Shown here piece after piece: positions 3,448 to 50,187 of a stretch of 64,000 nt of DNA (its first letter is position 1; every line of letters begins with the position of its first letter). The translations under genes were made by a program, and so were the position numbers. The stretch is from Candidatus Nealsonbacteria bacterium (GTDB lineage Bacteria; Patescibacteriota; Minisyncoccia; Minisyncoccales; JANBVM01). The stretch lies in NCBI GenBank assembly GCA_026016225.1, contig CP061210.1, positions 593,131-657,130 of the forward strand. The letters are read 5' to 3'. The notes beneath the pieces are model-generated. The model saw only the letters and a program-made list of their open reading frames with translations. It ran no database searches and was not told the DNA's origin.

Positions 3448-5430
3448 TTAAATGTCAAGATTTTTTACTTTTTTTGCATAACTTTGGATAAACTTTTTTC
3501 TTGATAAAACTTCTTTCCCCATTAAAGTATCAAAAATTTTATCTGCCTCTCTTGCATCTTCAATATTAACTTGAAGTAATGTTCTATTTTCAGGGTTCAT
3601 TGTTGTATCCCATAATTCTCCTGCATTCATCTCTCCTAATCCTTTGTATCTCTGAATAGAGGGTTTAATATTTTTCTTTATTGCCTTTAAAATGCTGAAT
3701 TTCTGGTCTTCGGTGTAAGCGTATTTAATTTCTTTTCCAACCTGAATCTTATAAAGAGGGGGCTGGGCAATATATATGTAACCCTTTTCAATTAAAGGTT
3801 TAAAATAACGGTAAAATAAAGTCAAGAGTAAAGCCTTAATATGATTTCCGTCACTATCTGCATCGCACATTATGATTATACGATGATATCTTGCTTTCTC
3901 GATATTAAAATCTTCGGCAATAGCAGTACCTAAAGCAATAACTAAAGATTTAATTTCTTTTGAAGAAAGAATTCTATCCAGTCGAGCTCTCTCCACGTTC
4001 AAAATTTTACCGCGCAGAGGCAATATGGCTTGAAAATGCCTATCCCTGGCCTGTCTTGAACTTCCGCCTGCCGACTCGCCTTCCACTATATATAATTCTG
4101 ACTCTTCTGCTTTTTTAGAAGAACAATCAGCCAACTTTCCCGGTAGAGCCAGGCCATCTAAAACTCTCTTTCTTAAAATTATGTCTTTGGCAGCTTTGGC
4201 AGCTTTTCTTGCTTTTTGAGCCAAAATAAATTTTTGAATTATTGATTTGGCGTCAATTGGGTTTCTCTCTAAAAAATCCATTAAAGACATGCCCATCACC
4301 TGCTCCACTACTGCTTTGGCTTCAGAATTACCTAATTTTGCCTTTGTCTGACCTTCAAATTGAGGTTCTCTGATTTTAATGGAGATTATCGCCGTTAATC
4401 CTTCTCTGGTATCAAAACCTGTAAAGTTATTGCCGTTTTCTTTTATAAATTCATTTCTTCTGGCATAGTCGTTAAATGTCCTGGTTAAGGCACTTCTAAA
4501 ACCCGTCAGATGCATCCCTCCTTCATGAGTATAGATATTGTTGGCAAAACTATCTTCAATACACTCATACTCGTCTGTATAAATTAAAGCAGCTTCAACT
4601 ATAATTCCGTTTTTTTCTCCATAACAATAAAAAACGTTCTCGGTAAGAGGAGTACGGCCTCGAACCAAATATTTAACGTAAGAAACTATTCCTCCTTCAA
4701 AATAAAAACTATAACCGGTATTAGGTTTAACCGTTTTGTCTATAAAGGTAATTCTCAAACCTTTAGTTAAATAAGCTTGCTGACGGAGATAATCTAAAAT
4801 TTTCTTTTTGTTGAATTTTATCTCTTTAAAAATTGCTGAATCTGGTTCAAAAATAATTATTGTTCCGCTTGTCCTGCACCTGCCAATTTTTTCAACTTTT
4901 GTCTTTGGCTTTCCCCGCGAATATTCTTGGAAATATCTGAAACCATCCCGACAAATTTCAGCTCTCATATATGTTGAAAGAGCGCAAACCACAGAAATAC
5001 CAACACCATGTAATCCACCAGTAGAAACATAAACCTTTCCTCCAAATTTCGCCCCCGTATGTAGAGTTGTCATCACTGTCTCTAAAGCGGATTTTTTTGT
5101 TTGAGGGTGTTTGTCTACCGGAATACCTCTTCCATTATCTTCAACCTTAACTCTATTCCCCGGCAAAAACGTAATTTTAATATCGCTGCAGTAACCCATT
5201 ATGGCTTCATCAATGCTATTTCCAACACATTCTTTTATTAATTGATGCAAACCATCAGGCCCTGTCGACCCAATAAACATTCCCGGTCTTTTCCTAATAG
5301 GTTCTAAGCCATGCAATACATAAATATCTTTTGCCGTATATGTTTTTGACTTACTTTCTTCACTTTTCTTCATCCTCTTTATACTCTTTTTCTTCTTTAA
5401 CTTTTTTACTTTTTTTGTTTTTTTCACCAT
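3448..5430 (-). CDS. gyrB: type IIA topoisomerase subunit B (GyrB/ParE family) with Lys-rich N-terminal tail
   Basis: GHKL ATPase motifs (VEDNGRGIP, GGLHGVG), Toprim EGESAGGS and MCDADSDGNHI. GyrB versus ParE cannot be decided by eye. Confidence 0.8.
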   Translation of the reverse strand: MVKKTKKVKKLKKKKSIKRMKKSEESKSKTYTAKDIYVLHGLEPIRKRPGMFIGSTGPDGLHQLIKECVGNSIDEAIMGYCSDIKITFLPGNRVKVEDNGRGIPVDKHPQTKKSALETVMTTLHTGAKFGGKVYVSTGGLHGVGISVVCALSTYMRAEICRDGFRYFQEYSRGKPKTKVEKIGRCRTSGTIIIFEPDSAIFKEIKFNKKKILDYLRQQAYLTKGLRITFIDKTVKPNTGYSFYFEGGIVSYVKYLVRGRTPLTENVFYCYGEKNGIIVEAALIYTDEYECIEDSFANNIYTHEGGMHLTGFRSALTRTFNDYARRNEFIKENGNNFTGFDTREGLTAIISIKIREPQFEGQTKAKLGNSEAKAVVEQVMGMSLMDFLERNPIDAKSIIQKFILAQKARKAAKAAKDIILRKRVLDGLALPGKLADCSSKKAEESELYIVEGESAGGSSRQARDRHFQAILPLRGKILNVERARLDRILSSKEIKSLVIALGTAIAEDFNIEKARYHRIIIMCDADSDGNHIKALLLTLFYRYFKPLIEKGYIYIAQPPLYKIQVGKEIKYAYTEDQKFSILKAIKKNIKPSIQRYKGLGEMNAGELWDTTMNPENRTLLQVNIEDAREADKIFDTLMGKEVLSRKKFIQSYAKKVKNLDI

Positions 5431-7543: not shown

Positions 7544-8596
7544 TTAAAATTGATTTAAAAATCTGAGGTCGCCTCCATAAAACAACCTAATATCATTGAT
7601 TTTATATTTAAGCATAGCCATTCTATCCATACCCATACCAAAAGCAAAAGCCTGCCAGTTTTTAGGGCTTAAACCAGAATTCTTGAAAACATTAGGATGA
7701 ACCATCCCTCCCGGAAAAACCTCTAACCATCCACTCTGACCACAAGTACTGCAACCTTTCCCATTACATATTGCACACTGAACATCTACTTCAAAAGAAG
7801 GTTCTGTAAAGGGAAAATAACCCGGTCGAAGGCGAACTTTTAAATCTTTCTTAAAAAATTGTTTGAAAAATTTTTTTGCTATTGCTTTAAAATTAGCAAC
7901 AGAAATTGTTTTATCAACCATTAATCCTTCAACCTGGTAAAAATTAATCTCATGTCTGGCATCAGTTGCCTCGTGCCTAAATACCCTGCCAGGAACAATA
8001 ATTCTTAAAGGAGGCTGATTCTTTTCCATGTAACGAACCTGAACAGGAGAAGTTTGGGTTCTCATTAAAAACTTATTTCGAGAAGGAAGATTTTCTCTAT
8101 TCCTTTGCTTTATAAACAAAGTATCTTGCATATCTCGAGCTGGATGGTTTTTGGGAAAATTCAAAGCATCAAAGTTATACCACTCATTTTCAAGCTCAGG
8201 ACCCTCAATAATTGAAAAGCCCATTGACTGGAATATCTTTTCGATTTCTATTTTAGTCTGGGTCAAGGGGTGTAAATGACCAACAGCCGGCTTTTTCCCG
8301 GGGATTGTAATATCAAAAAACTCCTCTTTTTCTCTCCTTACACCTGCCTTTTCTTTAATTTTCAGGCTTTTTTTAACAATCTTCTCTTCTAAAACAGCTT
8401 TAAGCTTATTTGCTTCTTTCCCAACCTTTACTCTTTTTTTCTTTGGCATCTTTTTCAGAGAACGCAAAACCAGGGAAAGTTCACCTTTCTTTCCTAAATA
8501 TTGTTTATAAACATCGTTCAACTCAGTTAAATTTTGGCTCTTTTTTATCTCTTTTTCAGCCCTTTTTTCAATGTTTTTTAAGTTAATTTTTTTCAT
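7544..8596 (-). CDS. pheS: phenylalanine--tRNA ligase alpha subunit
   Basis: Class II motifs (HPARDMQDTLF, FRHEATDARH, GMGMDRMAML). Confidence 0.92.
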   Translation of the reverse strand: MKKINLKNIEKRAEKEIKKSQNLTELNDVYKQYLGKKGELSLVLRSLKKMPKKKRVKVGKEANKLKAVLEEKIVKKSLKIKEKAGVRREKEEFFDITIPGKKPAVGHLHPLTQTKIEIEKIFQSMGFSIIEGPELENEWYNFDALNFPKNHPARDMQDTLFIKQRNRENLPSRNKFLMRTQTSPVQVRYMEKNQPPLRIIVPGRVFRHEATDARHEINFYQVEGLMVDKTISVANFKAIAKKFFKQFFKKDLKVRLRPGYFPFTEPSFEVDVQCAICNGKGCSTCGQSGWLEVFPGGMVHPNVFKNSGLSPKNWQAFAFGMGMDRMAMLKYKINDIRLFYGGDLRFLNQF

Positions 8597-8796
8597 TTCT
8601 TCGCTAAAAAATAAGTTCCTTCTACTATTAATTTTACCTTAATTTTTGCCTTAAATCAAGGTAAAACTGTGCACAAATAAACCTCCTTAAAATAAAAAAA
8701 ACAGAAGAAATAAATATAAAAAAAATTACATTATTTTTTCTTTCTGTTTTTTGATATACAATTACATCCAATTACATACAATTCTATCTAATTTTG

Positions 8797-8870
8797 CGGG
8801 GACGACGAGACTCGAACTCGCAACCTCGTGATCGACAATCACGAGCTCTAACCAATTGAGCTACGTCCCC
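8797..8870 (-). tRNA. tRNA-Asp (anticodon GTC)
   Basis: Minus strand: GGGGACG TA GCTC AATTGGTTA GAGC T CGTGA TTGTCGA TCACG AGGTT GCGAG TTCGAGT CTCGT CGTCCCC G. Cloverleaf is canonical with a TTCGAGT T-loop and a GG D-loop. No CCA is encoded. Confidence 0.85.
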
Positions 8871-8874
8871 AGGG

Positions 8875-8947
8875 TGCCGGTGACGGGACTCGAACCTGTA
8901 ACCTCTAGCTTATGATGCTATCGCTCTAACCATTGAGCTACACCGGC
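8875..8947 (-). tRNA. tRNA with CAT anticodon (elongator Met or Ile2/lysidine type)
   Basis: Minus strand: GCCGGTG TA GCTC AATGGTTA GAGC G ATAGC ATCATAA GCTAG AGGTT ACAGG TTCGAGT CCCGT CACCGGC A. G1-C72 is paired and the T-loop is canonical. There is one A/C mismatch in the T stem. Confidence 0.75.
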
Positions 8948-8948
8948 T

Positions 8949-9019
8949 TTGCGGTGCCTGGAATTGCACCAGGGCCTCCAGCTTATGGGACTGGCGAGGT
9001 ACTACTCCTCTACACCGCG
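8949..9019 (-). tRNA. tRNA with CAT anticodon and an initiator-like acceptor (C1/A72 mismatch), atypical loops
   Basis: Minus strand: CGCGGTG TA GAGG AGTAGTA CCTC G CCAGT CCCATAA GCTGG AGGC CCTGG TGCAATT CCAGG CACCGCA A. The acceptor resembles E. coli tRNA-fMet (CGCGGGG...CCCCGCA). Atypical points are C at position 33, no GGG/CCC in the anticodon stem, a D-loop without GG, and T-loop TGCAATT. Confidence 0.5.
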
Positions 9020-9031
9020 ACAATATCGCTA

Positions 9032-9060
9032 ATTTTAGCTTTTTTGAACACAAGAGTCAA
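9032..9060 (-). promoter_or_regulatory. sigma70-like promoter for the tRNA trio
   Basis: Minus strand reads TTGACT (9055-9060), a 17-nt spacer, then TAAAAT (9032-9037). The -10 ends 12 nt upstream of tRNA position 1. Confidence 0.5.
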
Positions 9061-9088
9061 TCCTTCGGCGCGGGCTCAGGACAACTTA

Positions 9089-9604
9089 TCACAACGCCTC
9101 CAAATCAACCAAAGCTTTTTCGTATACATCTAAAACCCTTTTTGACTCTTTTATATCCAAGCGATAACTTATATCATGAACAATATTCAAACATACTTTG
9201 TGAGCCTCTCTGACTTCTTCAATATTCTCAATAACGTTGGTAGTTAACTTGTTTAATCTCTCTTCTAAAGTCTGACCTAAAAAACCCTCTTTTTGTAAAA
9301 TATCGTTCAAAATAGCTTCTGCTTCAATTATGGCTAACTTTGCTTCAGGTTCACTGCCTGTATCCAATTTTTCTCTAATCTTAACCCATTTCTTATCGAT
9401 TCTTGGTAATCCATAATGTCGAAAAGTTAAGTATTCTTTAATGTCCCAAAATATTAGTCTTTTTAACCAGGTGGTTCTAAGTAAAACAAGAACAATTGTT
9501 ACAATGAAAAATAAATTTAGAGCTAAAAAGATAAATTTTACAATCAAAAGCCAGTCAGGAAGAATGGGGTTTAAAATAAATTGAATTATATTATCTAAGG
9601 TCAT
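9089..9604 (-). CDS. hypothetical membrane-anchored protein
   Basis: 171-aa ORF with an N-terminal TM segment (WLLIVKFIFLALNLFFIVTIVLVLL) and a helical C-terminus. I recognise no family. Confidence 0.45.
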   Translation of the reverse strand: MTLDNIIQFILNPILPDWLLIVKFIFLALNLFFIVTIVLVLLRTTWLKRLIFWDIKEYLTFRHYGLPRIDKKWVKIREKLDTGSEPEAKLAIIEAEAILNDILQKEGFLGQTLEERLNKLTTNVIENIEEVREAHKVCLNIVHDISYRLDIKESKRVLDVYEKALVDLEAL

Positions 9605-13692: not shown

Positions 13693-14772
13693 TTAGAAAA
13701 TTCTTGCTATATCTTTTATTGTTACCCAAACCATTAGCAAGAGCAAAGCCATAAAAGAAAAAGCAATCATTTTTTGTTGAATTTTTTCAGAAACTGGTTT
13801 TTTTCTTACGGCCTCAATTGCTAAAAATAAAATTCTACCTCCGTCTACTGCCGGAATAGGTAAAAGATTAAATATGGCTAATTGAATAGAAATTAAAGAT
13901 AGAAAGTTCAAAAAATAAATTAATCCTAATCGTTGAGTCTGAGTTAACATTTGAAAGATTCCAACAGGTCCTACTATCTCTATTCCTGTCCGCTGGCCTA
14001 AAAATAAGTTTTCAAGAGCTTGAATATAAACTTGAATTACAGCCAAAGTAATCTTCCCCGTAGTCACAATTCCTTTAAAAGGAGCTAAATACCAGGGATG
14101 TTTTTGAATTGCCGTCCTAATTAAAGCTACTCCCATTGGTCCCTCACCTTCGGGCGGCAAAATTCTTGGTATTAAAGAAGCTTCGAAAACCTCTTTTTCT
14201 CTCTCAATTATCAAAATAATATTCTGACCTTTATTCTGGTTAATAATCTCTTTTATTTCTTTAATCTTCGTTACATCAAACCTCAAACCTCCAATCTTAA
14301 AACCTTTTATTATATCTCCTACTTTTAAACCCGCAATATCAGCCGGCGAATCTGAAGCTATATCTATAATATTGACTTTAGGATTTAAAAAATTAGAAAT
14401 TTCTTCATCTTCAATCATAACAGGAGCGCCGAGACCAAAGACAATACTAAAAAGAATTGCTGCTATTACCCAAAAAGAAAGCACCCCTCCCAAAGCAATC
14501 AAAAATCTTTTTCCAACCGATTGTCGAGAAAAACTATGAGGATCACGGCTTTTTTCAATCTCTCCCGGCATCCTGACAAAAGCACCGAAGGGCAAAAGAT
14601 TAAGAGAATAAATAGTTTCTCCAATTTTTTTTGCAATTATTCTTGGAGGATAACCTATCCCAAACTCTTCAACTTTTACTCTAAATTTTTTAGCCAATAT
14701 AAAATGACCCAGCTCATGAAGAGTTATTAAACTAATAAGACTGATAAGACCTATTATAAATGTTAAAATCAT
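13693..14772 (-). CDS. rseP: RIP site-2 metalloprotease (RseP/M50 family) with PDZ domain
   Basis: HELGHF zinc motif, a PDZ-like segment (ADIAGLKVGDII) and LLPIPAVDGG. Confidence 0.8.
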   Translation of the reverse strand: MILTFIIGLISLISLITLHELGHFILAKKFRVKVEEFGIGYPPRIIAKKIGETIYSLNLLPFGAFVRMPGEIEKSRDPHSFSRQSVGKRFLIALGGVLSFWVIAAILFSIVFGLGAPVMIEDEEISNFLNPKVNIIDIASDSPADIAGLKVGDIIKGFKIGGLRFDVTKIKEIKEIINQNKGQNIILIIEREKEVFEASLIPRILPPEGEGPMGVALIRTAIQKHPWYLAPFKGIVTTGKITLAVIQVYIQALENLFLGQRTGIEIVGPVGIFQMLTQTQRLGLIYFLNFLSLISIQLAIFNLLPIPAVDGGRILFLAIEAVRKKPVSEKIQQKMIAFSFMALLLLMVWVTIKDIARIF

Positions 14773-15362: not shown

Positions 15363-16280
15363 TTAAAGCTTCATCATTAATATTTCTAAAGCTAATCTTG
15401 GGTTAATGTTCGTGGTTGAAATTACATAAATTGTTTCTTGAATAGCGTCGAGAATGTTTTTTATTTTTAATAAATTTGGTCTGTTTTTAGCAAAAAGTAA
15501 ATTCTTTCTGAAATAAAACAACCAAGCATCCAATGTTTCTTTCAGGTCTTCTTTTTGGGATAATTCTTTAACATATTGAAAACGTAAAGAAAGCGGAGAA
15601 TTTGAAATTTTTTCCAATTTTTTTATCTTTTTCTTTCTCTGTTCTAATTTCTCGGAGTTTTGCAAAAAATTAATAGCTTTTCCGGGTCTCCCTAATGAAA
15701 GTTCAACAATTTGTTTAATATCTTCCTTCGGAACTTTTTTTTGTTTCAAGTAAAGACTTATTTCTTCATTTTTCACGGAGTAAAACTTAACATTTTCACA
15801 CCTTGAAAGGATAGTAGGTAAAAGATAACCTGGATGCTCTGTAATTAAAATTAAAAGACTTTTAGTTTTTGGTTCTTCTAAGCTCTTTAAAAAACAGTTT
15901 TGGGCCTCCCGGGTCATTAAATGAGCTTTATCAACTATTACGCCTAAAAGAGGTGCTTTTATAGGTTTTAAGGATAATTTCCAATTAAGCTCTCTAATCT
16001 GAGCAATTTGAATCTGCTCACGCACCAGAGCAGACCTCGGAGCGGGGGTGTTGCGCCCAACCGAACTTTGTTCTGGTCTGGGATGTTTTGTTCTTGGGAC
16101 AATCAAAATAAAATCTGGATGACGAGACAGTTCTTCTTTAAAAAGAGAAGAAATTAGCTCTAAAGCTATTGTTCTTTTACCTAACTCTTCGGGTCCGGTA
16201 AACAGTAAAGCATGAGGAATTTTTCCTGAGCTAACTATTTTTTTTAAAAACTCTTGTTGTTTTTTATGGCCAATAATCAC
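15363..16280 (-). CDS. holB: DNA polymerase III delta-prime subunit
   Basis: HALLFTGPEELGKRT P-loop-like start, HPDF, and the SLEEP...ILSRC sensor region. It contains a GC-rich insert of about 20 aa. Confidence 0.7.
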   Translation of the reverse strand: MIIGHKKQQEFLKKIVSSGKIPHALLFTGPEELGKRTIALELISSLFKEELSRHPDFILIVPRTKHPRPEQSSVGRNTPAPRSALVREQIQIAQIRELNWKLSLKPIKAPLLGVIVDKAHLMTREAQNCFLKSLEEPKTKSLLILITEHPGYLLPTILSRCENVKFYSVKNEEISLYLKQKKVPKEDIKQIVELSLGRPGKAINFLQNSEKLEQRKKKIKKLEKISNSPLSLRFQYVKELSQKEDLKETLDAWLFYFRKNLLFAKNRPNLLKIKNILDAIQETIYVISTTNINPRLALEILMMKL

Positions 16281-17278
16281 TGTTTCTTCCTCATTATTGT
16301 TTTTTTATAGAGGTCTAAATTTTCTAACATTACTCCTGTTCCCTTTGCTACGCATAAAGACGGGTCCTCAACTAAAATAGCTGGAACACCTATGGATTTG
16401 GCAATTAATTCTGGAAGATTATCTAATAGAGAACCTCCTCCTGTCATTACCATCCCTTTATTCATGATATCAGCCGACAGTTCAGGTGGAGTATCTCTAA
16501 GTACTAATTTAATTACGTGAATAATCTCGGAAAGAATATCAGAGAGGGCTTCGCACATATCATTTGACGAAATTTTAATATTTTTAGGTAATCCTAAAGA
16601 CATATCTCTTCCTCGAATCTCCATCTTTTTTTCTTCCTTCTCGGGAAGAGCGGTACCGATTCTCTTCTTTATCTCCTCTGATGTTTGTTCTCCGATAGCT
16701 AAATTGTATTTCTTCCTAATATAATCAGAAATAGCAATATCCATTTTATCTCCTGCTATTCTTATAGAATGAAAATTAACAATTCCACCCAAAGAAATCA
16801 CTGCAGCTTCAGTTGTCCCTCCCCCAATATCAACAATCATATTACCGGAACAACTATCAATTGGAACCCCCGCTCCAATAGCTGCTAAGATGGGCTCTTT
16901 CGCTAAATAAACTGTTTTCGCTCCGACATTCATGCCGGCTTCAATTACCGCCCTTTTTTCAGTAGAAGTAATACCGGCTGGAACACCAATCATCAAATCT
17001 GGCTTGAAAAGGCGAAAATGACCCATCGTTTTATCAATAAAATGTTTAAGCATTGCCTGGGTTACTCTAAAATCAGCAATCACTCCGTCCTTAAGAGGTC
17101 GATAAATACGGATTGTATCGGGAGTACGTCCCATCATTTCTTTAGCTTCTCTTCCCACAGCTAAAATCTCATTCTCTGCTATGGCTACTGCCACTACTGA
17201 TGGTTCTTGTAAAACCACTCCTTTTTTAGGAATAAAAACAACTGAATTGCAGGTTCCTAAATCAATACCAATTCTCAT
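16277..17278 (-). CDS. MreB-like actin homolog (copy 2)
   Basis: MRIGIDLGTCNS, DIGGGTTEAAVISLGG and MTGGGSLLDNL motifs. It lacks the N-terminal extension of copy 1. Confidence 0.85.
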   Translation of the reverse strand: MRIGIDLGTCNSVVFIPKKGVVLQEPSVVAVAIAENEILAVGREAKEMMGRTPDTIRIYRPLKDGVIADFRVTQAMLKHFIDKTMGHFRLFKPDLMIGVPAGITSTEKRAVIEAGMNVGAKTVYLAKEPILAAIGAGVPIDSCSGNMIVDIGGGTTEAAVISLGGIVNFHSIRIAGDKMDIAISDYIRKKYNLAIGEQTSEEIKKRIGTALPEKEEKKMEIRGRDMSLGLPKNIKISSNDMCEALSDILSEIIHVIKLVLRDTPPELSADIMNKGMVMTGGGSLLDNLPELIAKSIGVPAILVEDPSLCVAKGTGVMLENLDLYKKTIMRKKQ

Positions 17279-17295
17279 AGTAGTGCTAATACATA

Positions 17296-17392
17296 ATCAG
17301 GTCGCTCGCCTTCGGCGAAAGCCTGTTTTCCTACATGGGGGAAACCTGAGAGTGGTGGACACTCACTCTCGCCCCCCCCCTCCGATATAGGA
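17296..17392 (-). promoter_or_regulatory. GC-rich structured leader upstream of mreB copy 2
   Basis: Minus strand reads ...UAUAUCGGAGGGGGGGGGCGAGAGUGAGUGUCCACCACUCUCAGGUUUCCCCC...CAGGCUUUCGCCGAAGGCGAGCGACCUG. Hairpins are GAGAGUG/CACUCUC and UCGCC-GAA-GGCGA. It shares a motif of about 35 nt with the rpsQ leader. Confidence 0.4.
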
Positions 17393-17505
17393 AAGTCTGT
17401 TTAAAAGATTATCTTTTTCCTCTTTAAAGATAACTTATCTTTTCAAATTTTGCAACTTTCAAAAAAAAAGAAGTCAAAAAATAGTCCTCTATAAGTTAAT
17501 GGCTC

Positions 17506-18870
17506 TTGAAGTTAATATTTAAAACAAATATAATGTTTAAAATGAGAGGAAAAACTCGCAAAATTCTATTGTTTCTATTTTTCCTTATATTTATTATCTC
17601 AGCACCCTTATTGGTGTTTTATTTTCAGGGATATAGATTTGATTTTAAAAACAAAAAATTGATCCAAACGGGCGGTCTTTTCTTTAAAATAAAACCGAAA
17701 CAAACAAAAATTTATTTAGACGAAAAATTATCAAAAGAAACTGATTTTCTTTTTGGTTCAGCTCTAATTGAAAATCTTTTACCAAAAAAATATAATGTTA
17801 AAGTAAAAAAAGAGGGGTATTTTGATTGGGAAAAAAACTTAGAAATAAGAGAAAAGGAGGTTACAGAAGCTAGAAATATTGTTCTTTTTCCAAATGATAT
17901 TAATTTTAGTTTTTTATCAAAAGGAATTAAAGATGTTTGGCTTTCTCCCGACGAAAGAAAAATGATTTTTAAAGAAAAGAAAGAAGATATCTGGGAATTG
18001 AAAATTTATGATTTAGAGAAAAACTTAAAGAGCCACCTTCTTAAAGAAAGTGATATCTCAAGTAAAGGAGCTGATTTATTTGACCTGGAATTTTCCAGAG
18101 ACGGAAAGAAAATATATTTTGATACTTTAATTGAAGAACAATTAAGAAAAAAGAAGAGTTTTGTTTTAGAAATCGATAAGAGCCCCCCTTTCTTAAAAGA
18201 AACTGAAAAAACTTTACCACCTCTGGAAAATATTATAACCTCTCAACAAATCAATGAAGAAGTTTATTATCTGGATAATTTTGGTTATCTTTACAAATCG
18301 GATAGTTCTTTCTCTAAAGCAGAAGAAATCACAAGAGTGCCTTTTCCTTTAAAACAGGAAACCGACTATCAATTATATGTTTTTTCTGACTTTGTCTTTC
18401 TAATAGAAGGAGGGAAATCTCTGCATTTATTAAATCAAGAAACAAAATTATTCGAAAATTTCTTCGAAGGAATAAAGTCTCTAAAAATCTCTCCTGATTT
18501 TGAAAAGATAGTCTATTTCTCTAATTACGAAATTCAAATTTTTTTCCTGAAAGAAAGTCCAAAGCAGCCAAAAAGGGAAAAAGGAGAAAATATGTTTTTA
18601 CTCCGCCTTTCAGAAAAAATCAAAGATGTTTTCTGGATAACACCAAATCATTTGATTTTCAGCACCGAGAATAATATAAAAATTACTGAAATTGACAATA
18701 GAGATATAATAAATATTATTCAATTAGCTGAGTTTTCATCTTTTATTAAGAACCACGGAGAATCTACTAAAGACCGGGGAAATCTAAAAATATTCTGGAA
18801 CTCTATTAATGAAAGACTCTATGTCTTAGCTAAAGAAAGTCTATGGGTTTCAAATAAACTGACTCCCTAA
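17506..18870 (+). CDS. membrane-anchored protein with PEGA-like domain and beta-propeller-like repeats
   Basis: N-terminal TM (ILLFLFFLIFIISAPLLVF), a PEGA-like stretch (KYNVKVKKEGYFDWEKNLEI), and repeated WLSPDERKMIF / FSRDGKKIYF / ISPDFEKIVYF motifs resembling TolB/PD40 blades. The true start may be the internal MRGKTRK. Confidence 0.4.
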   Translation: MKLIFKTNIMFKMRGKTRKILLFLFFLIFIISAPLLVFYFQGYRFDFKNKKLIQTGGLFFKIKPKQTKIYLDEKLSKETDFLFGSALIENLLPKKYNVKVKKEGYFDWEKNLEIREKEVTEARNIVLFPNDINFSFLSKGIKDVWLSPDERKMIFKEKKEDIWELKIYDLEKNLKSHLLKESDISSKGADLFDLEFSRDGKKIYFDTLIEEQLRKKKSFVLEIDKSPPFLKETEKTLPPLENIITSQQINEEVYYLDNFGYLYKSDSSFSKAEEITRVPFPLKQETDYQLYVFSDFVFLIEGGKSLHLLNQETKLFENFFEGIKSLKISPDFEKIVYFSNYEIQIFFLKESPKQPKREKGENMFLLRLSEKIKDVFWITPNHLIFSTENNIKITEIDNRDIINIIQLAEFSSFIKNHGESTKDRGNLKIFWNSINERLYVLAKESLWVSNKLTP

Positions 18871-18904
18871 AAACTCTTGAAACTTAAAGGGTGAAACTTG
18901 AACC

Positions 18905-19600
18905 TTAAGCGGTTTTGTTTTGCGCCTGAATTCTTTTCTTAAATTCTTCCCAGTTTACATTTCCCCCTCCTGTCATCTGACAGACTTCTTTAAACGGACA
19001 ATAACGACATTGCCAACTTAGGGGATAATCAGCGAGCTGGGAAGGAATAATATTTGAATCTATCTTTCTTTTTAGCTCGGTTAATTTTTTCAAAAGTCCC
19101 CGGGCTCTATTTTTATCATAATCTACTAAAAATTCTTTTAATTCCTGGCTATCTTTATTAACGTAAAGCAAAATTCCTTTTGATACTTTGAAAAAATGTA
19201 AATAAAGCTGAAGCTGGTCAACGTTTTCTACTTTAGGTTCTTTTAGATTTCTAAAAATCATACTGTTCATACTTTTGATGTCAACAATATATAAATCTTT
19301 TCCGTCACTAATGATTGCATCAGCCCTTCCAGCGATTAATTCTTTGGGAGGGATATTAACCTCTGACGCTACCACATGAATCTTTCTCAAACTCAACAAA
19401 GGCTTCATAATAAGCTGATGTATATAATCTCCGTGCTCAAACAATCTTAAGATTCTCGCTTCCATATCTTCTTTGGGAGCTTTTTTGAATTTATAAAATA
19501 TTGCCCTTGGACATTTTCCAGCGTCGGTAATATAAAAACGGGTCCTTTCTCTATCTTTTTGGCGGTCTAAGTAAAATTGGTTGATAAGTTTTTTGAGCAT
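18905..19600 (-). CDS. PD-(D/E)XK nuclease with Cas4/AddB-type 4-Cys cluster
   Basis: N-terminal Cys (DAGKCPRAIFY), core GRADAI...LYIVDIKS, and C-terminal CRYCPFKEVC. No cas genes or CRISPR array are nearby. Confidence 0.5.
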   Translation of the reverse strand: MLKKLINQFYLDRQKDRERTRFYITDAGKCPRAIFYKFKKAPKEDMEARILRLFEHGDYIHQLIMKPLLSLRKIHVVASEVNIPPKELIAGRADAIISDGKDLYIVDIKSMNSMIFRNLKEPKVENVDQLQLYLHFFKVSKGILLYVNKDSQELKEFLVDYDKNRARGLLKKLTELKRKIDSNIIPSQLADYPLSWQCRYCPFKEVCQMTGGGNVNWEEFKKRIQAQNKTA

Positions 19601-22908: not shown

Positions 22909-22913
22909 CTTAT

Positions 22914-23033
22914 TTCTTAATTCGTAGAATCAAGGTTCTGAGGAGCGGAGCGACGAATGGTTCTTAATTCAAAGAATCAAGGTTCTGAGGAGCGGAGCGA
23001 CGAATGGTTCTTAATTCAAAGAATCAAGGTTCT
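22914..23033. repeat. 47-bp tandem repeat, about 2.5 copies, in the rpsK-rpsD spacer
   Basis: The unit ttcttaattcRWagaatcaaggttctgaggagcggagcgacgaatgg occurs at 22914-22960 and 22961-23007 with 2 mismatches, plus a 26-nt partial copy at 23008-23033. This is followed by the hairpin CTCACC-gaa-GGTGAG. Confidence 0.85.
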
Positions 23034-23050
23034 CACCGAAGGTGAGGTTC

Positions 23051-23503: not shown

Positions 23504-23528
23504 AGTGGTAATATTTTTTGATATTATT

Positions 23529-28433: not shown

Positions 28434-29156
28434 TCAATAGTTACTTTTAGATAATAGTTTAACTATCTTAATAAATTCTTTTGGTTTTAAAGAAGCTCCT
28501 CCAATTAAAAGACCTTGAAATTTGGATTCTTTAATATAACCTAAGGCATTTTGAGAATTAACACTGCCACCGTATAAAACAGGATGTTTCTTTCCTAAAA
28601 CCTTTTTAATTGAAAGATTGAATCTTTTGGCCTGGGAAAAACTACAGGCTTTTCCAGTTCCAATCGCCCATATTGGTTCGTAAGCCACAATTATCTTTTT
28701 AATTTGGCTTTTTAAAATTCCCTTAATACCTCTTTTAATTTGAGAAATCTCATCAATGCATAAAATAGGTCTTAAATTTTGTTTAAGGACTGCTTTTAGC
28801 TTCTTATTAATTTCTGCGTCTTTTTCTAAGAAATGACTTCGTCTTTCAGAATGACCAATAATTACGTATTTACAACCCAAATCCGTAAGCATCAAAGGAG
28901 ATATCTCTCCTGTAAAAGCGCCTCTTTCTTCCCGGAAACAATTCTGTGAGCCGAAGGCGAGTCCTCCGTAGCTCGCCCTGCGGCGAGCGGAGGAGGGAGC
29001 TCCCAATAAAGATAGATAAACAAAAGGTGGACAAATTACTACTTCTGCATTTTTGACATCTTCAATCCCTCTTCTTATTGAATTGAAAAGATTACTTGCT
29101 TTTTTTAAGCTTGTTGGATTACATTTCCAATTACCTATAATGAAAATTTTATCCAT
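28434..29156 (-). CDS. tpiA: triosephosphate isomerase
   Basis: GNWKCN, GHSERR, AYEPIWAIGTG and GGASLK motifs. It contains a GC-rich palindromic patch at 28947-29003. Confidence 0.88.
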   Translation of the reverse strand: MDKIFIIGNWKCNPTSLKKASNLFNSIRRGIEDVKNAEVVICPPFVYLSLLGAPSSARRRASYGGLAFGSQNCFREERGAFTGEISPLMLTDLGCKYVIIGHSERRSHFLEKDAEINKKLKAVLKQNLRPILCIDEISQIKRGIKGILKSQIKKIIVAYEPIWAIGTGKACSFSQAKRFNLSIKKVLGKKHPVLYGGSVNSQNALGYIKESKFQGLLIGGASLKPKEFIKIVKLLSKSNY

Positions 29157-34115: not shown

Positions 34116-34550
34116 TTATGATTTTATTTCTCCTCCTGCTTTCTTTATTTTCTCTTTGGCTTTTTCTGAAAGCTGACATCCTTTAACTATCAACTTTTTA
34201 GTCAAATTACCTTGTGCCAAAATTTTTACTTCTGGCAACATTCCTTTTATTTTACGGATTAATCTCTTTTCAATCAATACCTGAGGTGAAATTAAATCTC
34301 CCTTTTTAAAAACTTTATCTAAATCTTTGATGTTAATAATGGCTGGTTTTTTCTTTCTTGATTTAAACCTATACCCTCTAAGTTTAGGATATTTTTTAAT
34401 CAACTGCCGAATCGGAGGCACCATTTTTCGGCCTGCCCTTGTTTTTTGTCCTTTTATTCCCCGGCCAGAATAAGTACCTCTTTTACCGCCACGTCCGATT
34501 CGCTTCTGCTTTTTCCTTTTATGAATTGATTTTAATTGGTGTAATTGCAT
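34116..34550 (-). CDS. rplO: 50S ribosomal protein L15
   Basis: MQLHQLKS...KRIGRGGKRGTYSGRGIKGQK. The ATG at 34550 is preferred. Confidence 0.92.
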   Translation of the reverse strand: MQLHQLKSIHKRKKQKRIGRGGKRGTYSGRGIKGQKTRAGRKMVPPIRQLIKKYPKLRGYRFKSRKKKPAIINIKDLDKVFKKGDLISPQVLIEKRLIRKIKGMLPEVKILAQGNLTKKLIVKGCQLSEKAKEKIKKAGGEIKS

Positions 34551-36500: not shown

Positions 36501-36701
36501 TTACCAGCTGCTTTTTTTTACCCCCGGGATTAGACCTTTATTTGCCATTTCCCTAAAGCAAATTCTGCATAGACCAAACTTTCTCATATATCCCCTTTTT
36601 CTTCCACATCTAAAGCACCTTCGCACAATTCGAGTTTTGAATTTTGGTTTTTTCTTTGCTTTAGCAATTAGGGATTTTTTTGGCATAGTGATAATACCCA
36701 A
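36501..36701 (-). CDS. rpsN: 30S ribosomal protein S14, zinc-binding type Z
   Basis: 66 aa with [23 protein letters not shown]. Confidence 0.92.
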
Positions 36702-36725
36702 TTGGGAAGGTATGTTTTACTTATA

Positions 36726-37585: not shown

Positions 37586-37953
37586 ACAATTTCTCTTGCT
37601 AAAGTTATTACTTTTTCAAAACCTTTTTCTTTTATTTCTCTTGCTATAGGACCGAAAATTCTTCCTCCTCTTGGGTTTTTTGTTTTTCCTTCTAAGATAA
37701 TACAGGCATTATCATCAAATCTAATGTAAGAACCATCACGCCTCCGATATTCTTTTTTCTGTCTTACAATCAAAGCTCTAACTACATCATGTTTTTTCAC
37801 CTCCCTTCTCGGTTCTGCTACTTTTACTGTTCCGACGACAACATCACCAATTCGAGCATAACGTTTTTTGCTACCACCTAAAACATGAATGCATTGAAGA
37901 ATCTTTGCTCCGCTATTATCTATTACTTTTATTATTGTTCTTATTTGAATCAT
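37582..37953 (-). CDS. rplN: 50S ribosomal protein L14
   Basis: [17 protein letters not shown]... Confidence 0.95.
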
Positions 37954-38194
37954 AGAAACTGTTTATTTTCTTAATAACTCTCCACCTCTTCCCTTTGCTT
38001 AAGGGTCTGCACTCTTTAATTATAACCCTATCTCCAATCTTATATTCTTCTTTTTCATCATGGGCTTTATACTTTTTATGAATCTTATATCTCCTTTTAT
38101 ACTTTGGGCTTTCCTTTATTCTTTCAACCTCAACCACAACTGTTTTTTGCATTTTGTTTGAAATAATTATACCTTTTAATTGTTTTTTAGGCAT
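37916..38194 (-). CDS. rpsQ: 30S ribosomal protein S17
   Basis: [25 protein letters not shown]. The ATG at 38194 is preferred over the GTG track start at 38206. The 3' end overlaps rplN. Confidence 0.9.
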
Positions 38195-38233
38195 AGTGGT
38201 ACTCACTCTTGACCCCCCTCCGATATGGGGAGG
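38192..38233 (-). promoter_or_regulatory. G-run/hairpin leader motif abutting the rpsQ start codon
   Basis: Minus strand reads CCUCCCCAUAUCGGAGGGGGGUCAAGAGUGAGUACCACU-AUG. CCUCCCC can pair with the G-run. About 33 nt are shared with the mreB-2 leader at 17348-17388. Confidence 0.45.
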
Positions 38234-38866: not shown

Positions 38867-38943
38867 CTAAATTCAAATATCTTTTAATTGCTCCGCAATT
38901 ACAGGAAGCAAAGCGACTGGTTTGTAACTCTAAATTCAAATAT
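38867..38943. repeat. perfect 14-bp direct repeat flanking a 49-bp GC-richer segment in the rplP-rpsC spacer
   Basis: ctaaattcaaatat occurs at 38867-38880 and again at 38930-38943. The segment between them is cttttaattgctccgcaattacaggaagcaaagcgactggtttgtaact. Confidence 0.8.
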
Positions 38944-44847: not shown

Positions 44848-44854
44848 AATAAAT

Positions 44855-44930
44855 CATGAAACATGGAACATGGAACATGGAACATAATTATAGAATTCAG
44901 GTCTCAGGTTTCAGGCTTCAAGCTTCAAGA
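44855..44930. repeat. two heptamer tandem arrays in the tuf 5' leader
   Basis: catgRaa occurs 4-5 times at 44855-44889. YtcaRgN occurs 5 times (ttcaggt ctcaggt ttcaggc ttcaagc ttcaaga) at 44896-44930. Confidence 0.85.
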
Positions 44931-44949
44931 AATTTTATTTATATTTGTT

Positions 44950-44978
44950 ATTTTATTTAATTTTAAAAAATAAGTCAA
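44950..44978 (-). promoter_or_regulatory. sigma70-like promoter for tuf
   Basis: Minus strand reads TTGACT (44973-44978), a 17-nt spacer, then TAAAAT (44950-44955). This gives a leader of about 95 nt containing the heptamer arrays. Confidence 0.55.
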
Positions 44979-45000
44979 CCCCGCACCACTTTATTATAAA

Positions 45001-47595: not shown

Positions 47596-48006
47596 TTATT
47601 TCTCTTTCTTCGTGCCGTACTTGGAGCGTTCCTGTTTTCTTCCCTCAACACCTCCTGCATCTAACACTCCTCTAACCACCTTGTAGTTTACTCCCGGTAA
47701 ATCCTTTATTTTTGCCCCCCTAATTAAGACTACCGAATGCTCTTGTAAATCGTGACCTTCTCCGGGAATATAAGCAGTCAGTTCCTGTCCATTGCTTAAA
47801 CGAACCCTGGCTACTTTTCTTAAAGCTGAGTGAGGCTTCTTTGGAGTCATAGTAAAAACCTTAATACAAACTCCTCTTTTAAAAGGAGATGGATGTCTTG
47901 ATCTTCTATTTTTCAAAACATTAAAGGTAAATTTAAAAACAGACGCTTTTTTGCGTTTTTTAATCTTTTTTCTTCCCTTTTTAATTAATTGATGAATAGT
48001 TGGCAT
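47596..48006 (-). CDS. rpsL: 30S ribosomal protein S12
   Basis: [12 protein letters not shown]...[19 protein letters not shown]...GVNYKVVRG. The ATG at 48006 is preferred. Confidence 0.94.
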
Positions 48007-48978: not shown

Positions 48979-48982
48979 TTTT

Positions 48983-49057
48983 CGGGCTGTAGCGCAGTTT
49001 AGTTAGCGCGCTCGCATGGGGCGCGAGAGGCCGCCGGGGCAGAGCCGGCCAGCCCGA
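48983..49057 (+). tRNA. tRNA-Pro (anticodon GGG) with non-canonical T- and D-loops
   Basis: CGGGCTG TA GCGC AGTTTAGTTA GCGC G CTCGC ATGGGGC GCGAG AGGCC GCCGG GGCAGAG CCGGC CAGCCCG A. All four stems are perfect and G37 is present. The T-loop is GGCAGAG rather than TTCRANY, and the D-loop lacks GG. Confidence 0.6.
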
Positions 49058-49088
49058 CACTTTTATTTAGAGACGCTAAAAAATGAAC

Positions 49089-49171
49089 TACCCCGCCCTA
49101 AAGGGACGGGGTATCCCTTCCGCCAACTGGCGGAGGGGCAAGTTCTTTTGCCCCGCCTGGGCGGGGCAAAA
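49089..49171. repeat. cluster of three GC-rich hairpins between tRNA-Pro and the nuclease-like gene
   Basis: TACCCCGCCC-taaa-GGGaCGGGGTA at 49089-49113. CCTTCCGCC-aact-GGCGGAGGG at 49115-49138. TTTTGCCCCGC-ctgg-GCGGGGCAAAA at 49146-49171. None is followed by a T-run. Confidence 0.8.
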
Positions 49172-49179
49172 TAAAATCT

Positions 49180-50037
49180 ATGAGTAAAGTTATTGTTAAG
49201 TGCTCTTATTGTAAAACGGAATTCCAGCGAGAATTGGGAAGATACAACGAAGCAATAAAGAAAAGTTGGAATCAGTATTGCTCTCAAGAATGTCAAAATA
49301 AGTCTAAGATTAAAAGAGTAGAAAAAATTTGCGGTAATCCAAAATGTAACAAGAGGGTGTCTCGTAAATTCCACGAATTTAAAAAATCAAAATCAGGCAG
49401 CATCTTTTGTTCTCTTTCTTGTGCCGTGTCGGTCAACAATTCTAAATTTCCAAAAAGACAGGCAATAAAAAGAAAATGTCTCTATTGTGAAAAAGATTTT
49501 GTCGGCGGAAAGAAATATTGCTCGATAAAATGCAAAAATAAAGCCCAAATTATAAGCAAAGAAGAAATCTGTGATAAAATTAAAGGGTTCTATAAAAAAT
49601 ATAGAAGGATTCCTGTCAAAAAAGAGTTCTCTCATTATAATGCTGCTCGAGATCGGTTCGGTTCTTGGAATAAAGCAATAGAATCAGCAGGCTTCGTACC
49701 TAATCCAGTAGTATTTGCAAGAAAGCACAAAGCAGAAGATGGACATGTGTGCGATTCTCTATCGGAAAAAATTGTTGATGATTGGCTTTCTAAAAACAAC
49801 TTAAAGCACAAAATTAATGTTGCCTATCCAGGGAATCCCCGTCTAACATGTGATTTTTTAGTAGGTAACTATTTTATAGAATTTTTCGGAATTGGAAAAG
49901 AACACGTACGATACACAGAACTAATGAAAGAAAAAAGGCGATTGGCTCAACAGTATAACCTTAATATGGTAGAACTAAAGCCTGAACACATTTTTCCTAA
50001 AAATAAGTTAGACGCTGTATTAAATTTTCTTCTATAA
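49180..50037 (+). CDS. multi-Zn-ribbon protein with homing-endonuclease-associated repeat and C-terminal PD-(D/E)XK/Vsr-like nuclease-like domain
   Basis: Three CxxC...(F/Y)CSxxC modules are followed by FYKKYRRIPVKKEFSHYNAARDRFGSWNKAIESAGF, an HNH-associated-repeat-like pattern. The C-terminus is CDSLSEKIVDDWL...TCDFLVGNYFIEFFG, like small DUF559/Vsr-type nuclease folds. The family assignment is pattern-based only. Confidence 0.45.
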   Translation: MSKVIVKCSYCKTEFQRELGRYNEAIKKSWNQYCSQECQNKSKIKRVEKICGNPKCNKRVSRKFHEFKKSKSGSIFCSLSCAVSVNNSKFPKRQAIKRKCLYCEKDFVGGKKYCSIKCKNKAQIISKEEICDKIKGFYKKYRRIPVKKEFSHYNAARDRFGSWNKAIESAGFVPNPVVFARKHKAEDGHVCDSLSEKIVDDWLSKNNLKHKINVAYPGNPRLTCDFLVGNYFIEFFGIGKEHVRYTELMKEKRRLAQQYNLNMVELKPEHIFPKNKLDAVLNFLL

Positions 50038-50105
50038 AAACAACTAAGATTAATTACAGAGATAGAAATTCTCGGGTATTCTAAACTTAGCGCGAACCTA
50101 TTTTC

Positions 50106-50155
50106 AGCGAAACGCCTAACCGCCGTTTCGCTTTGCCCGCGCGAAGCGCGGGCAA
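50106..50155. repeat. two adjacent perfect GC-rich hairpins downstream of the nuclease-like gene
   Basis: AGCGAAACG-cctaaccgc-CGTTTCGCT at 50106-50132. TTGCCCGCGC-gaa-GCGCGGGCAA at 50133-50155. Confidence 0.8.
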
Positions 50156-50187
50156 GGAAAAGAAAGTTTTTCAAAAATCTTTATTGG

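Follow-up and report, generated by a model that had tools for sequence, protein, structure and literature searches.

The BOX elements of Streptococcus pneumoniae are modular intergenic repeats (boxA-boxB-boxC) that occur in more than 100 copies per genome and are not tied to the start codon or to a single orientation. The Correia elements of Neisseria show well-defined terminal inverted repeats together with a TA duplication, and Rickettsia palindromic elements (RPEs) are inserted in frame in coding regions. Patescibacteria (CPR) are considered to have extremely streamlined genomes, and few bacterial loci are as compact and conserved as the S10/spc ribosomal-protein cluster. Here we describe a GC-rich leader directly upstream of an mreB gene (mreB2) in a 64-kb stretch of DNA, the window, from a host whose closest publicly available genomes belong to Candidatus Nealsonbacteria / Paceibacteria (phylum Patescibacteria). 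With a probability that we put at roughly one half, this leader represents one member of a low-copy dispersed family of modular insertion elements that are short (~40-150 nt), form hairpins and have no coding capacity. Judging from the genomes compared, the family appears to be confined to some Nealsonbacteria/Paceibacteria genomes.

The element resembles BOX in several respects: it is small, modular and non-coding, its ends are conserved while the modules between them vary in number, it is strongly hairpin-forming, and it lies in intergenic sequence next to genes, would be co-transcribed and encodes no transposase. It differs in having no sequence similarity to BOX and in numbering 2 copies in 64 kb. 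The REP/BIME-RAYT and IS200/IS605-derived elements are hairpin-based and have neither terminal inverted repeats nor target duplications, an architecture that the element may share; further common traits are a GTAG-like motif (GUAGGAAAA) 5′ of a palindrome, an orientation bias (in those elements, relative to replication and genes) and a possible role as an intercistronic mRNA stabilizer. However, GTAG is not invariant here (ATAG in the Paceibacteria genome L060 and the sister strain L085), and the element is longer, multi-hairpin and apparently low in copy number. Correia elements and RPEs are likewise small palindromic insertions in compact genomes that enter the transcripts of essential genes and alter 5′ UTR structure, with GC-rich or structured islands being tolerated at unusual sites, but neither the Correia termini and TA duplication nor in-frame insertion is seen. 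The cis-regulatory leaders of ribosomal protein genes and other genes in Rfam share the multi-hairpin 5′ leader at ribosomal protein genes and the open start region; the element matches none of them, is found upstream of mreB, holB, rpsQ and rpsH alike, and is absent from the orthologous leaders of relatives. By sequence and by their defining features, the element lies outside BOX, REP/BIME, Correia and RPE. It is also unusual in its ultra-reduced CPR host, its ribosomal-protein-operon and mreB locations, and its strict abutment on start codons.

The GC content of the window is 0.30-0.36 in all 2-kb bins, with a background of 0.33. The upstream regions of ~75 of its genes are AT-rich and contain almost no SD motifs. 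At least 10 window gene starts have YACT immediately 5′ of the ATG (for example those at 48006, 38194, 36686, 34550, 23503, 17278 and 7529), a start shared by many highly expressed genes, and ACTATG is a common start context across the clade. The leader heads a gene run that Pfam identifies as mreB2-holB-frr-rseP-proS-mreB1 (Table 1). Its sequence as quoted in the preliminary description is found on the minus strand at 17296-17392, and the GC richness reported there is confirmed: 17300-17399 has a GC content of 0.70 and is the sole intergenic 100-nt island of that GC in the window, lying between the promoter and the gene start.

Table 1. Coordinates and composition of the element, its copies and neighboring features (window positions unless a genome is named)
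Feature	Position	Strand	Description
Whole insertion element (mreB2 copy)	17279..17395	-	Modules A-B-linker-C-tail; GC 0.70; homologous to L100, L060, L008
Module A	17372..17395	-	Pyrimidine arm CUUUCC 17395-17390; loop UAUAUCGGA 17389-17381; G-run of 9 at 17380-17372
Module B	17337..17380	-	G-run paired with C-run CCCCC 17341-17337; apical GAGAGUG 17370-17364 / CACUCUC 17354-17348
Linker GUAGGAAAA	17326..17334	-	(G/A)UAGGAAAA in window cluster, L100, L060
Module C hairpin	17298..17325	-	CAGGC-UUUCGCC-GAA-GGCGAG-C-GACCUG; nearly the same in all strains, one G>A in L085
Tail AUUAUGUAUUAGCACUACU	17279..17297	-	Predicted unpaired; abuts mreB2 ATG
mreB2	16277..17278	-	Pfam MreB_Mbl, E = 1e-133; ATG 17278-17276
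Putative mreB2-operon promoter	17427..17455	-	-35 TTGCAA 17455-17450, 17-nt spacer, -10 TATCTT 17432-17427
Short-form rpsQ copy (module A + tail) CCUCCCCAUAUCGGAGGGGGGUCAAGAGUGAGUACCACU	38195..38233	-	A-tail; between rpmC stop 38258-38256 and rpsQ ATG 38194-38192
Possible tail-only remnant UAUUACCACU	23504..23513	-	Before rpsK ATG; low confidence
L100 copy	9050-9184		A-B-linker-C-D′-tail
L060 copy	4058-4201		A-B-linker-D-E-tail
L008 copy			linker-D-E-tail; cut by contig end

The 125 nt up to the ATG have a predicted folding energy of -50.1 kcal/mol, compared with -35.9 ± 3.7 for shuffled sequences (z = -3.80), and 0 of 200 shuffles was as stable. The predicted fold comprises a long hairpin (17394-17327), a second hairpin (17325-17298) pairing as CAGGC.UUCGCC-GAA-GGCGAG.GACCUG, and then an unpaired tail of 19 nt before the ATG at 17278. 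The perfect stem GAGAGUG/CACUCUC that had been reported is indeed present as the apical stem, but only in the window strain; in three sister strains it is mismatched or missing. The linker GUAGGAAAA can pair with UUUCCUAUAU (17394-17385) in the window strain, yielding one long hairpin, and is predicted to be single-stranded in the folds of the L100 and L060 copies. The leader had also been described as something other than an ordinary SD. This agrees with the position of GGAGG, which lies ~100 nt (mreB2) and 22 nt (rpsQ) 5′ of the conserved ATG, too far for the 5-10 nt of an SD. Two further candidates were rejected. One was a leader peptide following the G-run, whose GUG-initiated 11-codon ORF is lost in L087 (GUG to GUA) and is unconserved between strains. 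The other was an HDV-like or other ribozyme topology, for which no P2 equivalent is seen by eye and no Rfam match is found.

A putative promoter lies upstream of the element (Table 1). TTGCAA-N17-TAnnnT occurs at the same position 5′ of mreB in L089, L095, L102, L007, L009, L010 and L064, and this conservation spans genera. A generic sigma-70 scan does not call the mreB2 promoter, and the assignment draws on the conservation instead. A conserved promoter at 17455-17427 would place the element within a ~150-nt 5′ UTR of mreB2. In L009, L010 and L064 the mreB ATG is found 9 nt after the -10 box, so that the mRNAs are nearly leaderless, and this short gap suggests that the ancestral mreB leader was short. 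Two similar AT-rich palindromes lie at 17405-17450 on the minus strand, AAAGATAAGTTATCTTT overlapping the -10 box and AAAAGATAATCTTTT at the start of the 5′ UTR; they could be an operator.

A second copy of the element is found in the window. The first ~38 nt of the leader were said to recur 5′ of rpsQ, and this recurrence is real, at 38195-38233. The rpsQ copy is recovered by nhmmer with E = 0.003 (window+L100 model) and is present with minor changes in strains L090-L093. ATATCGGAGGGGGG occurs exactly twice in the window (17375-17388 and 38213-38226; 0.22 expected by chance), and the motif search that had been proposed, AGAGTGAGT-N(0-6)-ACCACT, likewise finds exactly two sites, in the mreB2 and rpsQ leaders, where 0.00 are expected. 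Allowing 2 mismatches, ATATCGGAGG has two more matches, both in coding sequence (the MreB DIGGG motif and rplX). A derivation of ATATCGGAGG from the MreB DIGGG codons was rejected, the similarity being confined to that motif.

Other resemblances within the window do not belong to the family or may do so at most. The preliminary description had proposed that a sub-hairpin recurs between tuf and rpsJ. AGAGTG (43638-43633) and CACTCT (43617-43612) do exist there, but as a chance match: AGAGTGA is observed 6 times in the window against 7.65 expected, the tuf-rpsJ spacer has no HMM match to the family profile, the stem is outside the minimum-free-energy fold, and the spacer sequence of relatives is unrelated. 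At the start of rpsK, where a tail-only remnant is possible, the window reads ...aaaaatattaccactATG compared with attaaaattATG in its sisters L085 and L087; the conserved ATG of rplO at 34550 follows a comparable GUUACCACU. The rplE-rpsN spacer (36687-36725, minus strand) contains CCTTCCCAATTGGGTATTATCACT-ATG, with a small C/G hairpin and a tail-like TATTATCACT, where the spacers of relatives are unrelated and AT-rich; this may be a degenerate short form of the element. Two GC-rich islands, in tpiA (28938-29016) and holB (16007-16083), were considered as in-frame insertions of this type. For tpiA this was rejected, as the Pfam TIM alignment runs end to end without an insertion; the 12-nt match GCCGAAGGCGAG has E = 0.41.

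Homologous copies are found in three other Paceibacteria genomes, in an rpsN-rpsH spacer, an mreB-holB spacer and an mreB leader. The first is in L100, another Nealsonbacteria genome with ~75-80% nucleotide identity, and is detected by nhmmer with E = 3e-11 using a profile built solely from four strain alleles of the window cluster. Plain BLAST of the window against L100 gives E = 3e-8 over 36 nt at 92% identity, the shared module C sequence being CAGGCTTTCGCTGAAGGCGA. The L060 copy, in the mreB-holB spacer, has E = 0.0022 with the window+L100 model, and the strain-allele profile matches L060 at 4067-4201 more weakly than L100. As a non-circular check, a model of L060 and L008 finds the L100 copy at E = 2e-4. 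The L008 copy is in the mreB leader. The genome with the copy at rpsH (L100) lacks the element at mreB. A GC-rich CCCCTCC...GGAGGGG hairpin at L042 1395-1436 was not accepted as a family member (HMM E = 0.5-1.2), and N-terminally extended MreB calls were rejected as a source of extra copies, their extensions being unrelated.

The copies share a modular architecture (Table 1). All consist of several predicted hairpins followed by an unpaired tail, and the tail is unpaired in every predicted fold of the family copies. The tail GACCUGAUUAUGUAUUACCACU is conserved across the family (consensus GACCUGAUWAKGURWYACCACU, then ATG), with GACCTGAT-N-GT-N-CCACT-ATG kept in L100 and L060 and a close variant in L008. 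The module A hairpin with its AUCGGA loop is also found in the rpsQ copy, L100 and L060. In L008, AAGAAAA takes the aligned place of the linker. Module C (consensus CAGGCUUUCGCYGAAGGCGA...) is common to the window and L100, and modules D/E (...GUUUUUAAAGAGC...CGUGCCGC) occur in L060, L008 and partly in L100. Module B is a hairpin whose sequence is unrelated between lineages, an unrelated hairpin occupying its position in L100 and L060. What is conserved are the predicted single-stranded segments (the AUCGGA loop, UAGGAAAA and the tail), while the stems differ between copies. In the family as a whole, which numbers two copies in the 64-kb window and five independent loci overall, 5/5 loci are in sense orientation and abut the ATG. 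The proposal that this is a repeated structured element is supported.

Both window copies are present in all strains 97-99.7% identical to the window, and the mreB2 copy is seen in five independent strain-cluster assemblies (L085/L086, L087/L088, L094); the strain sources comprise two NCBI complete genomes, one NCBI MAG, four Logan assemblies and one JGI metagenome. All more distant relatives (MreB identity of 91% or less) lack the copies in their orthologous leaders; the mreB2 copy is absent from the mreB leaders of L089 (MreB 91% identical), L095 (88%), L102 (87%), L007 (86%) and L017 (85%), and the promoter is retained in element-free relatives. Among ~60 Patescibacteria mreB leaders, all but that of L008 lack the element. 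A comparable situation is seen at rpsQ. In the window, 61 nt separate rpmC and rpsQ, compared with AT-rich spacers of 5, 23 and 15 nt in L096, L098 and L100, respectively, and the conserved S17 start MPKKQLKG corresponds to the ATG at 38194. Together, the short spacers of relatives and the conserved start place the 39-nt CCTCCCC...ACCACT exactly between the old spacer and the ATG. Both window copies are lineage-specific and are read as recent insertions. The preliminary description had named two observations that would count against its proposal, a lack of other copies in the genome and a lack of conservation in orthologous leaders. The second is what we find in other species; other copies, however, do exist.

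Each of the strain alleles is backed by two independent assemblies. Between the window and L085 the overall difference is ~1.4%, but module B differs at 17/60 nt (28%), and the flanks, module C and tail are almost unchanged. The G-run is 9, 8, 8 and 5 nt long in the four strain alleles. Two-sided compensatory changes number 0 among these alleles and several base pairs are disrupted, giving no sign of selection on the apical structure; in the basal stem and hairpin C, pairing persists because the sequence itself is unchanged. The divergence is too fast for simple relaxed constraint and suggests that the G/C-runs undergo slippage or hypermutation, or that sequence is exchanged between copies.

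Searches of Rfam and of phage, plasmid and viral collections find no match to the element. An Rfam scan, which had been suggested as a check, finds no match in the window at the gathering threshold and only noise at E up to 10 (17000-17700), and with the L100 and L060 copies nothing above noise appears in Rfam 15 up to E = 5. Phage and plasmid BLAST searches give no match to the element, and the tail and linker patterns have 0 matches in viral contigs. The exact pattern TATCGGAGGGGGG-N(1-8)-AGAGTGAG has 0 matches in 185,579 species genomes, and its five matches in JGI metagenomes, on contigs of 54-69% GC, were judged to be chance; neither collection contains the source genome. A literature search on this topic found no relevant paper.

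Several properties bear on the kind of element involved. Multiple copies occur at non-orthologous sites, two in the window and others in rpsH, holB and mreB leaders elsewhere. Pfam finds no transposase families among the 20 window ORFs scanned. The terminal inverted repeats of a MITE are not found: the inverted repeat TTTCCTATA(T)/(A)TATAGGAAA is internal, with module C and the tail outside it, and TTTCCTATA/TATAGGAAA is found neither in the L100 and L060 copies nor at rpsQ. No flanking repeat is shared between filled and empty sites at rpsQ (window compared with L096, L098 and L100) or at rpsH (L100 compared with the window); the empty sites come from diverged genomes and fix the element ends only approximately. 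Hairpins lie near both element ends, three 5′ ends follow ATAA, and the 3′ end is always at an ATG (n = 5 loci). The marks of a conserved mreB cis-regulatory leader are lacking, the element being absent from orthologous leaders and having 0 covarying pairs.

The preliminary description had offered three candidates: a processing site, a protein-binding site and an inserted mobile hairpin element. The last is the best fit, given the absence of the element outside the 97-99.7% cluster and its homologues at other genes, though the mobility itself is inferred; a processing or protein-binding role may still apply. An element of this kind would recently have entered the mreB2 5′ UTR in the lineage of the window and its 97-99.7% strains, and the rpmC-rpsQ spacer of that lineage would have received a truncated copy consisting of module A and tail. 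The mobility presumably operates at the DNA level, non-autonomous or duplicative, with mobilization in trans; by analogy, hairpin-dependent single-strand transposition of the REP/RAYT or IS200/IS605 type would fit the sub-terminal hairpins, the GTAG-like motif, the fixed orientation and the failure to define inverted repeats or duplications. Once inserted, the element would be co-transcribed with the downstream gene as a structured leader, its 5′ modules forming stable GC-rich hairpins and its 3′ tail staying single-stranded. The tail would place the UAUUACCACU context, which is also found at other highly expressed genes, immediately before the AUG. This start context would keep an essential gene translatable after the insertion, which is perhaps why only sense, ATG-abutting copies occur. 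In the RNA, the hairpins would serve to stabilize the transcript at its 5′ end or between cistrons, or would mark a processing boundary; a ligand-sensing switch is less expected.

The main alternative is that the leader is a cis-regulatory RNA, protein- or ligand-binding, recruited before mreB, holB, rpsQ and rpsH, in which a trans factor would bind GGA-type sites, the AUCGGA loop and the UAGGAAAA linker, and thereby govern translation at the adjacent open tail. Sense orientation and conserved unpaired segments are equally expected of such an RNA: each of the five loci is sense-oriented and adjoins a start codon, conservation falls on loops, linker and tail, stems B and C vary in sequence yet stay hairpins, and every host gene has a core function in growth. 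Against this, close relatives regulate the same essential genes without the element, its presence is patchy and differs by genome, and the core changes by 28% between 98.8%-identical strains with no compensatory pairs. There is also no Rfam family match, and no candidate binding protein was identified. We consider this explanation rather unlikely, albeit a serious competitor to the insertion element.

A variant with a somewhat smaller chance of being correct is that the family is a portable translation-initiation cassette, that is, a mobile element that targets, or is tolerated only at, sites immediately 5′ of start codons and brings with it a structured leader and a conserved open UAUUACCACU-AUG context, supplying these to essential genes of an ultra-reduced CPR genome poor in SD sites. 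If this were true, tail-only remnants would be spreading the start context through ribosomal protein operons.

Doubtful to a slightly greater degree is an origin without mobility, through local expansion by slippage or templated insertion and then gene conversion between leaders, with the similarity to other genomes due to convergence on GC-rich hairpins and a favored start context. The strain-dependent G-run length, the neighboring spacer with copy-number change of a tandem unit, the 14-nt duplication around another insertion, of a kind that replication errors produce, and the ACTATG start context common in the clade would all be in keeping with such an origin. However, the L100 match (36 nt at 92%, with the full-length HMM at E = 3e-11) is in the spacer of a different gene and is far beyond convergence, and the modules of L060, L008 and L100 interlock.

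That the leader is a small RNA gene in its own right, encoded on either strand and located by chance between promoter and mreB2, is very improbable. GC-rich and stably folded in an AT-rich genome, the leader does look like a structural RNA, but no promoter or terminator of its own was found, neither strand has an Rfam match, and the copies in other genomes lie within operons between stop and ATG, which leaves no room for such a gene. An assembly artefact or chance GC-rich sequence deserves almost no credence: although two short-read contigs break in or near the element (L001 24 nt 5′ of the ATG and L008 inside its copy), the same alleles were obtained independently from NCBI complete genomes, Logan assemblies and the JGI metagenome, which refutes an artefact, and the motif statistics exclude chance.

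Taking the insertion-element reading, structured insertions are gained, lost and remodeled among 97-99.7% strains before rpsQ, rpsH, rpsD, rplP, mreB and holB. Polymorphic spacer inserts in the same strains suggest that small operon-spacer insertion is ongoing in this lineage. If confirmed genome-wide, this would be the first such element family that we have found described in the phylum. Its members could then serve as strain-level markers, explain short-read contig breaks, and provide a natural experiment on start-codon function in an organism that barely uses SD.

Several other small insertions were observed. The rpsK-rpsD spacer (22909-23050, minus strand) holds a second dispersed leader element, taaGAACCTCACCTTCGGTGAGAACCTTGATTC..GAATTAAGAACC.., which begins right after the stop codon and consists of a tandem 47-nt hairpin unit repeated ~2.5×; its copy number is strain-variable and it is absent in L089. 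Homologues lie on both sides of mreB in L062 (1-57 and 1071-1176; E = 1e-10), with a compensatory stem change from CUCAC/GUGAG to CUCGC/GCGAG. The rpsC-rplP spacer (38881-38929, minus strand) contains a 49-nt insert, AGTTACAAACCAGTCGCTTTGCTTCCTGTAATTGCGGAGCAATTAAAAG, flanked by a 14-nt direct repeat, ATATTTGAATTTAG. This insert is present in the window and L090 and absent from L091 and L092, and L087 alone has a relative of it (14078-14128), reversed, between gatC and gatA. Contigs break at small insertions in L001 (24 nt before the mreB2 ATG), L008 (in the leader element) and L093 (after the 49-nt insert), and such short-read breaks fit samples that contain repeats or are heterogeneous at strain level. 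One Nealsonbacteria genome has, at two sites, a MITE-like element whose terminal inverted repeats (ATCTTCACCTGATTGCCTCGG ... CCCTCGACAATCAGCTGAAGAT) are ~20 nt long: L100/L101 (~7690-7865, rplN-rplX spacer) and L102 (~7680-7760).

Different motifs occupy the mreB leaders of other relatives. In three other Paceibacteria (L020 2925-3000, L031 2910-2998, L063 228-300) the leader has the motif GCUCAA-[hairpin]-UUUCG(A/C)(C/G)C, with 3 compensatory pairs among only 3 sequences; it may be a real mreB cis-regulatory RNA. Its layout of outer stem and inner hairpin is like that of module C of the window element. Palindromes made of heptamer repeats fill the mreB leaders of L035, L037, L038, L048, L049 and L079, similar to the fusA-tuf spacer of the window (44848-45000, minus strand), which has two heptamer tandem-repeat runs, CTTGAAG/CCTGAAA... 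and ATGTTCC ×3.

Elsewhere in the window, a GC-rich hairpin block (48981-49174 and 50102-50168; GC up to 0.85) lies beside an ORF (49180-50037) with an HNH_repeat domain, which is homing-endonuclease-associated. Within this block, 48985-49060 is tRNA-like (GGGCTGTAGCGCAGTT...), yet is called by neither ARAGORN nor Rfam. S17 (37916-38194, minus strand) is 92 aa long compared with 77 aa in relatives, and its changed C-terminus overlaps the rplN start. L085 (CP179891) has a LAGLIDADG_3 ORF at 18414-19094, between a 171-aa gene and pheS; the window counterpart of this region (8796-9020) holds tRNA-Met, tRNA-Met and tRNA-Asp.
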